This document shows, in pieces, positions 5,549 through 41,781 of a stretch of DNA of 64,000 nt. Position numbers and translations under genes: made by a program. Numbering within the stretch: the stretch's first letter is position 1; each line of letters begins with the position of its first letter. The notes under the pieces are model-generated. The model saw only the letters and a program-made list of their open reading frames with translations, did no database searches and was not told the DNA's origin. The stretch lies in the NCBI RefSeq assembly GCF_055900595.2, contig NZ_CM148325.1, one strand, 5' to 3'.

Positions 5549-5694
5549 CTACCCCAAACTGATTACAAAACTTTAAAAAGTGCTGGTTTGTGCGAGCCAG
5601 CTCAAACTTTTTAACCTTTTTGTTTCAATTATGATCCAGGTACATTTCTGTGATGTTGTCTGGGTGTTATTTTAAGGCCGCAGGTACCCCATAA

Positions 5695-7017
<1,323 letters not shown>

Positions 7018-21431: not shown

Positions 21432-21451
21432 TTAGGATTTTGTTATTTAAA
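21432..21451 (+). promoter_or_regulatory. GAD box (GadE/GadX/GadW binding element) upstream of gadA
   Basis: TTAGGATTTTGTTATTTAAA is the 20-bp GAD box as I recall it, about 80 bp upstream of the gadA ATG. Confidence 0.8.
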
Positions 21452-24124: not shown

Positions 24125-24139
24125 TTTTTACCCAGACAT

Positions 24140-24245
24140 AAAAAAAACCCGGCATAGGGGACCGGGAAGAGGATAGTCTGCCGTCTCCAGACTAATAAAC
24201 CGTTATAACACTCCCTGTTGGCACGGGAAACTTTGTGCTCTCAGT
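24140..24245 (-). ncRNA. gadY: GadY small RNA (antisense to the gadX 3' end, Hfq-dependent)
   Basis: Minus-strand sequence ACTGAGAGCACAAAGTTTCCCGTGCCAACAGGGAGTGTTATAACGGTTTATTAGTCTGGAGACGGCAGACTATCCTCTTCCCGGTCCCCTATGCCGGGTTTTTTTT matches GadY as recalled, with a terminal hairpin and U-tract; ends approximate. Confidence 0.8.
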
Positions 24246-24491
24246 AAGTTAAATATAACTTTTACTGGAGATAAGATCAGCCATTTTTTTATAAACATAA
24301 GCTATGCGCTGTGTGAAAATATATTCTTCTTGCATTTTCTTATTATCAATTAACTGTTATGTCAAACTACTTTTTGGATAACTTTTGGTCCTACCAAATA
24401 TGGCAGTTTATGCACGAAGAAGCGGTCTGGCATCATTTCATTAGTATACTGAAATTGAAATAATCGCAGTAATGAAATATAAGGGATAGTC

Positions 24492-29878: not shown

Positions 29879-30216
29879 TTTAGTCCCTGAAAATTCTTGA
29901 GATATAACGGTTCTTTAAATTGCGCGCGAGGAGAGGTATGAGGGATTTACAGACCAGCGGCATAGTGGGGTTGTCAGCCAGTAAGATGGGATGCAAGCAC
30001 AGTGATCGACATGGTGAGGTCAACGACAAAAAAAATGTTGCCGTTCTGCCAACAGTTCCTGCCAGCATTCGGGCAACGAAGGGTTCTACTGGTGGATACA
30101 CATACCAGGGGAATAAAGTCGTTTTCGCCTCTCCTTTAGTCATCACCGGGGATAATGAAATCAGCATCTGCATCCCTCTTCATGCCTGCCATCATTTTCA
30201 GTTAATTATGTCCTGA

Positions 30217-30744
30217 CTAAAAATAAGATGTGATACCCAGGGTGACGATGTCGCTCATACGTCTTAGTTTCAGCTTGTACATAATGTTGAATTTCTGAAT
30301 CTTTAATGTTTGTTGCGAAATATTGAGCGTTGACGTGATATTGCTTTCGTTTTTGTTTTTCAGAATCAGCTGCATAATTTTGAACTGATTATGTGAAAAA
30401 CATAATTGTGAATTCTTATGGGGCAAGTGTTTACCATAAGTAATCTCAAGAAGATTTTTGATACTTTCTTTGCGGCTGACAAAATAAATAGGCGCTTTAG
30501 CTTTTAGTTTACTGATGTGATAAGGTGCCAAAACAATAATTCTCTCGGCGTCTAATTTCTCCAGAAATTTAATCGCTTCTTCATCAAGGATATGGTTGTG
30601 ATAGGTATCAATGATAACCTTGAAGGGTTTATTACCTACTTTTTTGATCTCTGACAGGGAATTGATTTTTATCATTTCGTGATTATCTTTCAACTGCCAA
30701 AAGCCCTGTAAAAGAAAAGAATCTTTCGTCATGAGAAAAATCAT
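30217..30744 (-). CDS. gadE: LuxR-family acid-resistance master regulator GadE, 175 aa
   Basis: Translation from MIFLMTKDSFLLQGFWQLKDNHEMIKINSLSEIKK recognised as GadE; the six-frame ORF runs 26 codons upstream. Confidence 0.92.
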   Translation of the reverse strand: MIFLMTKDSFLLQGFWQLKDNHEMIKINSLSEIKKVGNKPFKVIIDTYHNHILDEEAIKFLEKLDAERIIVLAPYHISKLKAKAPIYFVSRKESIKNLLEITYGKHLPHKNSQLCFSHNQFKIMQLILKNKNESNITSTLNISQQTLKIQKFNIMYKLKLRRMSDIVTLGITSYF

Positions 30745-31542
30745 AACTTGCTCCTTAGCCGTTATCGTTTCGAACATGTCATCCTTTTCATTATTTACAT
30801 CCCTGTCCGAATCGTTGTTCAATATAGTAAACGCCTATAAGAACCTTGCCCTTCGTGAACTAATACGTCTATTAACACTAATCAATACTTCAGATTTATC
30901 CATCACGCACTCCATATATTGATCCTAAGTAAAATTCCTGGTTGTTATCAGATTGTAAACTGCAAGCAAAAAATTAACGTTTGCGGATTACTGCCCAAGA
31001 ATAAGTTATCAATAACCAGTTTGTGATCTCTGAAGAATATTACTAAAGTTAAAATGTAATCCGATTTAAATATCGAGTCTCCTTGTTTCGACTTAAGCTG
31101 GCAATTGGATTGCCAGCTTTCTTTTAACGCATTGAAATTACCTGAGTAAATAACTCATTCATGTCTTCAGGTTTTTATATAGCGTCTGGAGACACGGATA
31201 TTTATGCAATGTAATCAACGCCAGTTGCAAAAAAATGAACCCGGATTACTTATTTAACCGCCCATAGCATCAACGTTTACGGAACTCTTTGTTCACTTTC
31301 CCACAGCACTTTTAAAACATTAAACCTGACTACGGAAAATATCAGCCATGATAATGTTTGAAATGGCTAATTTGCCATGCAATGAAAAAAATCAGATAAA
31401 ATTCAGTAGGTTGAAATACTCATCAGCAGGTAATTATTTCAATGATAGCGCGCAATTGATCTAAAATGCTGTGTAGCGGAGAGAGTATTAATTGGATCAT
31501 AGTCACATCAAGTGACTATGATCCAGGTGGCAATAGGGATAA
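30745..31542 (-). promoter_or_regulatory. Extended gadE upstream regulatory region (multiple promoters and long 5' UTRs)
   Basis: About 800 bp of AT-rich non-coding DNA between hdeD and gadE, matching the known large gadE control region; individual sites not resolved by eye. Confidence 0.5.
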
Positions 31543-32115
31543 TTATTGCTTTTTAACAAACAAACTGGCGAAGCTGAACAGGCTAGCGGCGCTAAATATC
31601 AGTTCAATTCCCACTAGTGTGGAAACCAGCGTTACAGAAACCATCGGCGTTGCACCAAGGAATATCCAGGCAATGACGATATCCAGCACACCAATAACGA
31701 GCTGTAGCCAACTGCCTTTCATTGAACGCTGACGATACCAACTCATCAGGCGAATAACTCCTGCCACACAGAACAAACCGGCAATAAATGCCGCAATGGC
31801 AAAAATGCCCAGCTCCGGTGCGCGGATGAAGAAATAGCCGATCAATAAATAGGCGACTGCGACGAGGAAACCGGATAATACCGGCCAGAAATTATGACTG
31901 CGGTTGCTGAATAGCCCGACAATAAGCGCAATGCCCGAGCAGATTAATAATGCACCCACTACTGTGCTTAAAATATCGCCAGAGACGAACGGAAAACTGA
32001 TACACAGCAACCCGACGATAAACAGCAGCACGGCAATAAACTGGATTGCTCTGCGATGTTTTTTAAGCATCTCCAGATCAAACTTCAAAATTGTTGCCTT
32101 ATCTATATATAACAT
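31543..32115 (-). CDS. hdeD: Acid-resistance membrane protein HdeD, 190 aa
   Basis: Translation recognised as HdeD. Confidence 0.95.
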   Translation of the reverse strand: MLYIDKATILKFDLEMLKKHRRAIQFIAVLLFIVGLLCISFPFVSGDILSTVVGALLICSGIALIVGLFSNRSHNFWPVLSGFLVAVAYLLIGYFFIRAPELGIFAIAAFIAGLFCVAGVIRLMSWYRQRSMKGSWLQLVIGVLDIVIAWIFLGATPMVSVTLVSTLVGIELIFSAASLFSFASLFVKKQ

Positions 32116-33855: not shown

Positions 33856-33875
33856 TCTATATAGTTATTTATTCG

Positions 33876-33909
33876 CAGGAGTACCAGAGCGGTACTCCTG
33901 TTGGTTTTA
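33876..33909 (+). terminator. Terminator hairpin between yhiD and chuV (convergent)
   Basis: CAGGAGTACC-AGAGC-GGTACTCCTG followed by TTGGTTTT. Confidence 0.7.
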
Positions 33910-39509: not shown

Positions 39510-39798
39510 ACGTTCGCGCTTAACAAAACACGACCATATGGATAACAAAACCATAGCATTTGCAAGGGATAACGCACAGCGCTCTTCACTCCTGATGGGG
39601 CATATCGTTTTGCCTGATAAAGAGGGCGTGCTTTTGCGTATTTGCCGAGATACCAGGCAATTTCATGGGATATAAACGCCTGTAAACTCACCCGGCGAAT
39701 ATTATCGCTCTGAATTTTAAATAAATTTATTTCTCGCAAGCCACCCCGGTATTAACCCAGGCAGCCAGCATTTTTTATTTTCCTCATGGAGAATCGCT

Positions 39799-41781
39799 AT
39801 GTCACGTCCGCAATTTACCTCGTTGCGTTTGAGTTTGTTGGCTTTGGCTGTTTCTGCCACCTTGCCAACGTTTGCTTTTGCTACTGAAACCATGACCATT
39901 ACGGCAACGGGGAATGCCCGTAGTTCCTTCGAAGCGCCTATGATGGTCAGCGTCATCGACACTTCCGCTCCTGAAAATCAAACGGCTACTTCAGCCACCG
40001 ATCTGCTGCGTCATGTTCCTGGAATTACTCTTGATGGTACCGGACGAACCAACGGTCAGGATGTAAATATGCGTGGCTATGATCATCGCGGCGTGCTGGT
40101 TCTTGTCGATGGTGTTCGCCAGGGAACGGATACCGGACACCTGAATGGTACTTTTCTCGATCCGGCGCTGATCAAGCGTGTTGAGATTGTTCGCGGACCT
40201 TCAGCATTACTGTATGGCAGTGGCGCGCTGGGTGGGGTGATCTCCTACGATACGGTCGATGCAAAAGATTTATTGCAGGAAGGACAAAGTAGTGGTTTTC
40301 GTGTCTTTGGTACTGGTGGCACGGGGGACCATAGCCTGGGATTAGGCGCGAGCGCGTTTGGGCGAACTGAAAATCTGGATGGTATTGTGGCCTGGTCCAG
40401 TCGCGATCGGGGTGATTTACGCCAGAGCAATGGTGAAACCGCGCCGAATGACGAGTCCATTAATAACATGCTGGCGAAAGGGACCTGGCAAATTGATTCA
40501 GCCCAGTCTCTGAGCGGTTTAGTGCGTTACTACAACAACGACGCGCGTGAACCAAAAAATCCGCAGACCGTTGAGGCTTCTGAAAGCAGCAACCCGATGG
40601 TTGATCGTTCAACAATTCAACGCGATGCGCAGCTTTCTTATAAACTCGCCCCGCAGGGCAACGACTGGTTAAATGCAGATGCAAAAATTTACTGGTCGGA
40701 AGTCCGTATTAATGCGCAAAACACGGGGAGTTCCGGCGAGTATCGTGAACAGATAACAAAAGGAGCCAGGCTGGAGAACCGTTCCACTCTATTTGCCGAC
40801 AGTTTCGCTTCTCACTTACTGACATATGGCGGTGAGTATTATCGTCAGGAACAACATCCGGGCGGCGCGACGACGGGCTTTCCGCAAGCAAAAATCGATT
40901 TTAGCTCTGGCTGGCTACAGGATGAGATCACCTTACGCGATCTGCCGATTACCCTGCTTGGCGGAACCCGCTATGACAGTTATCACGGTAGCAGCGACGG
41001 CTACAAAGATGTTGATGCTGACAAATGGTCATCTCGTGCGGGGATGACTATCAACCCGACCAACTGGCTGATGTTATTTGGCTCATATGCCCAGGCATTC
41101 CGCGCCCCGACGATGGGCGAAATGTATAACGATTCTAAGCACTTCTCGATTGGTAGCTTCTATACCAACTATTGGGTGCCAAACCCGAACTTACGTCCGG
41201 AAACTAACGAAACTCAGGAGTACGGTTTTGGGCTGCGTTTTGATGACCTGATGTTGTCCAATGATGCCCTGGAATTTAAAGCCAGCTACTTTGATACCAA
41301 AGCGAAGGATTACATCTCCACGACTGTCGATTTCGCGGCTGCGACAACTATGTCGTATAACGTCCCGAACGCCAAAATCTGGGGCTGGGATGTGATGACG
41401 AAATATACCACTGATCTGTTTAGCCTTGATGTGGCCTATAACCGTACCCGCGGCAAAGACACCGATACCGGGGAATATATTTCCAGTATTAACCCGGATA
41501 CCGTTACCAGCACCCTGAATATTCCGATCGCTCACAGTGGCTTCTCTGTTGGTTGGGTCGGTACGTTTGCCGATCGCTCAACACATATCAGCAGCAGTTA
41601 CAGCAAACAACCTGGCTATGGTGTGAATGATTTCTACGTCAGTTATCAAGGGCAGCAGGCGCTCAAAGGTATGACCACTACTCTGGTATTGGGCAACGCC
41701 TTCGACAAAGAGTACTGGTCGCCGCAAGGCATCCCACAGGATGGTCGTAACGGAAAAATTTTCGTGAGTTATCAATGGTAA
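39799..41781 (+). CDS. chuA: ChuA, TonB-dependent outer-membrane haem/haemoglobin receptor, 660 aa
   Basis: Translation recognised as ChuA/ShuA; signal peptide, TonB-box region, C-terminal aromatic terminus (SYQW). Confidence 0.95.
   Translation: MSRPQFTSLRLSLLALAVSATLPTFAFATETMTITATGNARSSFEAPMMVSVIDTSAPENQTATSATDLLRHVPGITLDGTGRTNGQDVNMRGYDHRGVLVLVDGVRQGTDTGHLNGTFLDPALIKRVEIVRGPSALLYGSGALGGVISYDTVDAKDLLQEGQSSGFRVFGTGGTGDHSLGLGASAFGRTENLDGIVAWSSRDRGDLRQSNGETAPNDESINNMLAKGTWQIDSAQSLSGLVRYYNNDAREPKNPQTVEASESSNPMVDRSTIQRDAQLSYKLAPQGNDWLNADAKIYWSEVRINAQNTGSSGEYREQITKGARLENRSTLFADSFASHLLTYGGEYYRQEQHPGGATTGFPQAKIDFSSGWLQDEITLRDLPITLLGGTRYDSYHGSSDGYKDVDADKWSSRAGMTINPTNWLMLFGSYAQAFRAPTMGEMYNDSKHFSIGSFYTNYWVPNPNLRPETNETQEYGFGLRFDDLMLSNDALEFKASYFDTKAKDYISTTVDFAAATTMSYNVPNAKIWGWDVMTKYTTDLFSLDVAYNRTRGKDTDTGEYISSINPDTVTSTLNIPIAHSGFSVGWVGTFADRSTHISSSYSKQPGYGVNDFYVSYQGQQALKGMTTTLVLGNAFDKEYWSPQGIPQDGRNGKIFVSYQW

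Follow-up and report, generated by a model that had tools for sequence, protein, structure and literature searches.

The window analyzed here is a stretch of 64,000 nucleotides (contig NZ_CM148325.1 of the NCBI RefSeq assembly GCF_055900595.2), and all positions refer to it unless given relative to the gadE ATG. At 30745..31542, on the minus strand, the ORF map and the alignment to K-12 place the hdeD-gadE intergenic region, the gadE "sensory integration" region. It comprises 798 non-coding bases that fit exactly between two ORFs of the ORF list, hdeD (31543..32115, minus strand) and gadE (30217..30744, minus strand, 175 aa). According to the ORFs and the K-12 and RefSeq annotation, the two genes lie on one strand inside the acid fitness island. 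The GC content of the interval is 35.7%, against 49.4% for the whole window, and the counterpart in K-12 MG1655 (5569..6366 of the K-12 locus, L001) has the same length of 798 bp. The initial annotation had described an AT-rich non-coding gadE control region of about 800 bp, and both the coordinates and the composition agree with this description. The gadE gene is 98.5% identical to that of K-12 at the DNA level, and the GadE accession WP_000576690.1 is common to all 13 RefSeq loci fetched besides K-12. Glutamate-dependent acid resistance, by which E. coli survives stomach acid, has GadE as its master switch. Its promoter region was described as an "unusually large 798 bp", among about eight such intergenic regions in E. 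coli, with more than ten regulators at it (PMC3708157). The interval 30745..31542 is therefore the well-studied gadE control region of E. coli, and it is already known.

The region was found in 5413 of 5426 complete E. coli genomes, and seven of these 5413 matches covered less than 80% of it. One genome, E. coli strain 3059 (NZ_CP103559.1), matched only the hdeD-proximal 29% of the region, and a Tn3-family transposase is annotated across that match; the gadE control region seems to have been disrupted naturally in this strain. Two further sequences were set aside from the comparison, a Flavobacterium paronense contig (L021; 95.6% identical, many indels) and a Streptomyces sp. DH24 contig (L022; a 466-bp fragment, with protein-level identity). 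The E. coli hdeD-gadE sequence in these two assemblies is almost certainly contamination.

Two annotations were noted on the downstream side of gadE. GadF, an sRNA from the gadE 3' UTR, lies at 30028..30118 (minus strand) and is 100% identical to K-12; the Rfam match named ES205 (30028..30099) is the same RNA. Antisense to GadF, in the gadE-mdtE spacer, RefSeq/PGAP annotates a 92-aa "hypothetical protein" (WP_001205315.1; 29938..30216, plus strand) in many non-K-12 genomes. K-12 carries no such annotation, and this protein is probably an annotation artefact.

The initial annotation expected several promoters and long leaders upstream of gadE, which the K-12 literature and the core start-site regions bear out. 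Transcripts of gadE start at -21, -124 (T1), -324/-317 (T2), and -566 (T3) from the ATG (PMC3708157). In the window, the segments from -60 to +10 around T3 (31310), T2 (31068/31061), and T1 (30868) are all identical to K-12. The P3 block, which includes the T3 start, extends over 31303..31378 on the minus strand (relative -634..-559); its sequence is that of K-12 without any change, and among Escherichia species the identity is 93-100%. The two T2 starts, located at 31061..31068 (minus strand) from the published positions (PMC3708157), fall within the segment complementary to the sRNA ArrS. The T1 leader (30745..30868, minus strand) is 94-99% identical across Escherichia and differs from K-12 by four SNPs, at -104, -101, -59, and -31. 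The gadE Shine-Dalgarno sequence, AAGGAG, lies at -13..-8, and it and the GGA motifs of the T1 leader are the same as in K-12, where CsrA binds the gadE leader. In K-12, H-NS silencing of the gadE region is lifted by ArcA together with other activators, and GadE activates its own expression at P1 (PMC3708157). A scan with the GAD-box consensus found no match within three mismatches in the hdeD-gadE region, and weaker matches were at chance level; the same scan recovered the gadA box exactly, at 21432..21451.

The T1 leader also contains an in-frame ATG at 30775..30777 (minus strand), 33 nt 5' of the annotated gadE start and preceded by AAGGA. As judged by an exact 31-mer, this ATG is present in 3904 of 5426 genomes, with ATA at the same place in K-12. 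It could yield a GadE isoform 11 residues longer, with the canonical start having a much better Shine-Dalgarno sequence. An N-terminal extension of GadE from a TTG at -78 was rejected, since 1-nt indels in other species disrupt the frame. Upstream, in E. albertii, E. whittamii, and two more Escherichia lineages (L017-L020), the T3 leader has lost about 70-100 nt between P3 and ArrS or has other sequence in their place. The change corresponds to alignment columns 330-440 (about 31126..31230 of the window), and P3, ArrS, P1, and the T1 leader are kept.

The suspicion that the region encodes an ArrS-type antisense RNA was correct for ArrS itself, and no second antisense RNA was found. By exact string match to the K-12 annotation, the arrS gene, a 70-nt sRNA antisense to the T3 leader, was identified at 31056..31125 on the plus strand (relative -381..-312), with all 70 nucleotides the same as K-12 b4704. 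It is encoded opposite gadE, downstream of T3 and overlapping T2. The 80 bp 5' of the ArrS start (30976..31055, plus strand), its promoter region, are 100% identical to K-12. The terminator scan detected an intrinsic terminator hairpin of 11 bp followed by TCTTTT at 31095..31119 (plus strand), and the predicted fold of ArrS has an energy of -20.2 kcal/mol (z = -3.8 relative to shuffled controls). Antisense transcription of the ArrS type is thus, by its sequence, very likely real here, as a feature that is already known.

Of 5426 E. coli genomes, 4095 have exactly this 70-mer, and the rest have one or two mismatches. ArrS is also 94-100% identical in six further lineages of Escherichia, among them E. 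albertii and E. whittamii, which were found via the GadE protein; conservation sets in exactly at its 3' end, and the adjoining T3 leader is 27-39% identical. An A-to-G variant in the terminator stem of other lineages gives a G.U pair in the ArrS sense and an A.C mismatch in the gadE sense, which is consistent with selection on the ArrS strand. Searches against Rfam 15 at both gathering and permissive (E <= 10) thresholds returned no family at the ArrS position and only chance snoRNA/CRISPR matches in the region. Rfam apparently has no model that recognizes ArrS, so the missing match is no argument against its identity, and the identification rests on identity with the K-12 annotation.

For RNA 3' ends, we used the K-12 Term-seq and bicyclomycin data of Adams et al. 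2021 (eLife, supplementary files 1 and 2). The ArrS 3' end is very strong in these data; it lies at K-12 position 3657984/5 (minus strand) and corresponds to relative position -381 and window position 31125. A second 3' end, on the gadE strand (3658019, plus strand in K-12; relative -347), corresponds to about 31091 on the minus strand of the window. This places it inside the T3 leader, directly past the stretch complementary to the terminator hairpin of ArrS. This hairpin may be bidirectional, truncating some T3 transcripts at about 220 nt.

In K-12, ArrS and the leader of T3, the longest gadE transcript, are complementary, and ArrS is induced by acid or in stationary phase by way of GadE and sigma-S. 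RNase III targets the ArrS/gadE duplex, and through Hfq ArrS has effects in trans as well. GadE has been confirmed to activate arrS, whose locus is part of an H-NS/StpA-dependent protein-occupancy domain (EPOD).

Alignment to K-12, which had been proposed as a check for indels, was run over the 798 bp and resulted in 31 substitutions and no indels (96.1% identity). No indel thus separates the two sequences, but neither does the identity with K-12 that the initial annotation had named as refuting its idea hold, given the 31 SNPs. Accelerated divergence of the region was considered and rejected, because 96.1% is typical of the acid fitness island. Its other genes and spacers are mostly 94-99% identical to K-12, with a lowest value of 89.2% (for example, mdtF 96.4%, gadW 95.9%, and hdeB 96.3%). 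The substitutions are unevenly distributed. Nineteen occur in the hdeD-proximal 164 bp (relative -795..-635; 31379..31542; binomial P about 1e-6), two in the central 405 bp (relative -634..-230; P about 1e-7), six in the 41 bp at relative -229..-189, and four at relative -104..-31, within the 124-nt T1 leader. A polymorphism hot spot between T2 and T1 (30949..30983, minus strand; relative -239..-205) has ten variable columns among 15 E. coli haplotypes; it is 54-89% identical to the other nine Escherichia sequences and varies in all lineages.

The polarity of the SNPs was assessed by comparing the 15 E. coli haplotypes with two close outgroups. In that sample, four of the 31 differences (-795, -635, -104, and -31) were private to K-12, and most of the remaining ones were polymorphisms common to other lineages or outgroups. 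About eight alleles are apparently specific to the haplotype group of the window (-705, -675, -532, -229, -222, -217, -208, and -101), none of them in ArrS, the ArrS promoter, or a mapped core promoter. Overall, the 31 SNPs behave like normal sequence variation, most dense in the hdeD 3' UTR.

The segment that varies most, 31379..31542 on the minus strand, with 19 of the 31 SNPs, is the hdeD 3' UTR as far as a Rho termination region. Over these 164 bp, just 17 genomes reach 99% identity with the window, compared with 4070 over the central 405 bp, and in distant Escherichia the segment is 50-58% identical. At its hdeD end, a predicted stem-loop with a 14-bp stem, a 5-nt loop, and no U tract occupies 31493..31525 (minus strand), beginning about 17 nt 3' of the hdeD stop codon. 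The predicted energy is -23.7 kcal/mol (z = -7.3). Across ten Escherichia sequences, 95% of cells are paired, and for three pairs both partners have changed in a compensatory way, one example being C:G in K-12 and T:A in the window. A G-to-A change in the stem-loop of E. whittamii, E. albertii, and E1V33 leaves A.C in the hdeD sense and G.U in the opposite sense.

The K-12 3'-end data fit this placement. An RNA 3' end at 3657621 (plus strand; relative -745, window 31489) sits 4 nt past the hdeD stem, and a Rho termination region (3657733, plus strand; Rho score 6.8, p = 2e-20; relative -633, window about 31377) follows about 110 nt further. The arrangement fits the general account of Adams et al. 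2021, in which the stem-loop would protect the 3' end of a Rho-terminated hdeD mRNA. Much less probably, the stem-loop, with its covarying pairs and no U tract, could be more than a passive 3'-end protector. The hdeD-proximal 164 bp are probably not gadE promoter, since the K-12 3'-end data place the hdeD 3' UTR there. Conservation and these data indicate that roughly one fifth of what is called the 798-bp gadE promoter acts as an hdeD 3' UTR/terminator zone, and most of the strain-to-strain variation lies within it.

Taken as a whole, we are highly confident that this is an ordinary E. coli gadE regulatory region, working as described for K-12. H-NS-silenced, AT-rich DNA with three main promoters (P3, P2, and P1) would give rise to gadE mRNAs whose leaders measure 566, about 320, and 124 nt. 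EvgA, YdeO, GadE, GadX/W, ArcA, PhoP, RpoS, and others would integrate acid, growth-phase, and anaerobic signals at the region. From the opposite strand, a GadE- and sigma-S-dependent promoter would produce the 70-nt ArrS, ending at its intrinsic terminator. ArrS would pair perfectly with the T3 leader and create an RNase III substrate, with altered processing and stability of the gadE mRNA as the outcome, and it would additionally act in trans through Hfq. The hdeD-proximal 164 bp would functionally belong to hdeD, with the stem-loop marking the 3' end of the hdeD mRNA and a Rho termination zone behind it. A segment with this role would be free to vary, which would explain most of the difference from K-12.

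The position, identity, and conservation of P3/T3, T2, T1, ArrS with its terminator, and the hdeD stem-loop were observed directly in the alignments. How the region is transcribed, which regulators bind it, and how ArrS would work in this strain, we take from the K-12 literature; because the relevant DNA is identical, these steps presumably operate unchanged. As the mapped promoter cores and ArrS are unchanged, knowledge from K-12 should transfer to this lineage.

We also considered quantitative tuning of gadE expression by lineage-specific SNPs, with no involvement of chu, which would give the strain another basal level or another degree of heterogeneity in its acid resistance. Altered H-NS nucleation, hdeD read-through into P3, or T1 leader translation would be examples of routes. 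The eight apparently derived alleles, the two polymorphism hot spots, and the differences from K-12 at -101, -59, and -31 in an otherwise highly conserved T1 leader speak for such tuning, and gadE expression is known to be noisy and tunable by evolution (PMC9769608). However, most of the differences lie in the hdeD 3' UTR and the Rho zone, which vary in all lineages. Moreover, within the T1 leader, -104 and -31 are sites of minority K-12-type alleles and -59 is common to outgroups, whereas the GGA motifs and the Shine-Dalgarno sequence are unaltered. We regard quantitative tuning as unlikely. A narrower form, for which we would allow a still lower probability, is that the approximately eight private SNPs and the hypervariable zone 5' of P3 might change hdeD-to-gadE read-through or H-NS silencing, and with it set a lineage-specific level of acid resistance.

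A further unannotated product, either a second antisense RNA or a translated small ORF, would be another departure from the K-12 arrangement. One antisense candidate is a promoter-like match, CTGACT-18-GATAAT, at 31326..31355 (plus strand), in the invariant P3 block and divergent from P3. Sigma-70-like matches are, however, as frequent in the region as in shuffled sequences (4 versus 4.5 +/- 2.2), the sequence 3' of the candidate is the hypervariable stretch, and K-12 Term-seq in three growth conditions shows no antisense 3' end in the region except that of ArrS. This divergent promoter was rejected, its match being no better than those in shuffles and no K-12 antisense 3' end fitting it.

For small ORFs, 18 of at least 12 codons on both strands were surveyed in ten Escherichia sequences. 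A single one, a 26-codon ORF at 30915..30835 (minus strand), is intact in all ten; it lies in the T2 and T3 leaders and has AGGA and GGAG 5' of two ATGs. Its substitutions number about 3, 7-8, and 6 at codon positions 1, 2, and 3, which is neither a coding signature nor a third-position bias, and the ORF stays intact because it overlaps the conserved P1 promoter. A Pfam search of the region ORFs gave zero matches. The earlier remark that the ORF track shows nothing convincing therefore holds, with no Pfam match and no coding pattern across Escherichia, while the small ORFs it anticipated did not materialize among the 18 examined. With no coding signature, no Pfam match, and no extra antisense 3' end, we propose no new product and consider one very improbable.

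The haplotype of the whole region is rare: among 5426 complete genomes, only 18 reach 99% identity with it, and the next best stands at 97.6%. The rarity arises almost entirely from the hdeD-proximal 164 bp and the hot spot at -239..-205. The initial annotation had linked a nearby chu insertion to possible rewiring of gadE regulation in this lineage. The insertion is indeed there: the chu cluster, for heme uptake, starts at about 33859, right after yhiD, and homology to chu-negative strains stops at about 33858. It adjoins yhiD some 2.3 kb from the hdeD-gadE region, with hdeD and the hdeAB-yhiD operon in between. The junction itself, 3 nt past the yhiD stop, was placed at 33856..33906, with the chu cluster from 33907 onward. 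The shuA/chuA 5' UTR RNA thermometer (Rfam) is intact upstream of chuA at 39770..39801 (plus strand).

That the gadE control was rewired through, or in association with, this insertion could draw on the proximity of chu, the rare haplotype, and the 31 sites unlike K-12. Yet the window haplotype (99.1-99.6% identical) occurs in the chu-negative strains 2013C-4282, MFDS1022581, 2017-02-2CC, and WL297 (L004, L010, L011, and L012) as well as in the chu-positive Z0117EC0005, EC42405, and RMDEC465 (L002, L009, and L013). In the chu-negative carriers, yhiD adjoins dctR, and the region differs from the window at 3-7 of 798 positions. Among the chu-positive carriers, Z0117EC0005 has a region identical to that of the window. 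The haplotypes of other chu-positive lineages (PCN033, strain 132, APEC O18, and others) are quite unlike it, with 20-39 differences, and none of the 72 variable columns among the 15 haplotypes segregates with chu. The acid-island haplotype (98.6-99.1% over 6.4 kb) occurs with and without chu, which implies that, inside one haplotype group, chu was gained or lost or recombination took place.

With the same haplotype in chu-negative carriers, the rewiring through chu is largely refuted; given also the absence of indels, the K-12 sequence of all mapped core elements including ArrS and its promoter, and the genes that separate chu from the region, it is not supported and we hold it to be extremely improbable. 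The state of the region is independent of chu, and an effect of the chu island on the control of acid resistance should not be taken for granted.

Our preferred reading, an ordinary gadE regulatory region, can be compared with three known systems. The closest is the K-12 gadE sensory integration region itself (Ma et al. 2004; Sayed & Foster 2009; via PMC3708157), with which the window shares the flanking genes and the 798-bp length without indels. The window is likewise AT-rich, the type of DNA targeted by H-NS, and differs by its 31 substitutions (3.9%), 19 of them in the part that is hdeD 3' UTR. The second is the K-12 ArrS (Aiso et al. 2011, 2014), whose length of 70 nt, position, strand, terminator, and 80-bp promoter region are all the same in the window, with zero sequence difference in ArrS. 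The third is GadY (Rfam RF00122), of the gadX-gadW spacer, which is intact in the window at 24135..24248 (minus strand). Like ArrS, GadY is an antisense sRNA encoded in the island and directs how the mRNA that it overlaps is processed; however, it has another locus and sequence, and it overlaps the gadX 3' UTR, whereas ArrS overlaps a 5' leader.
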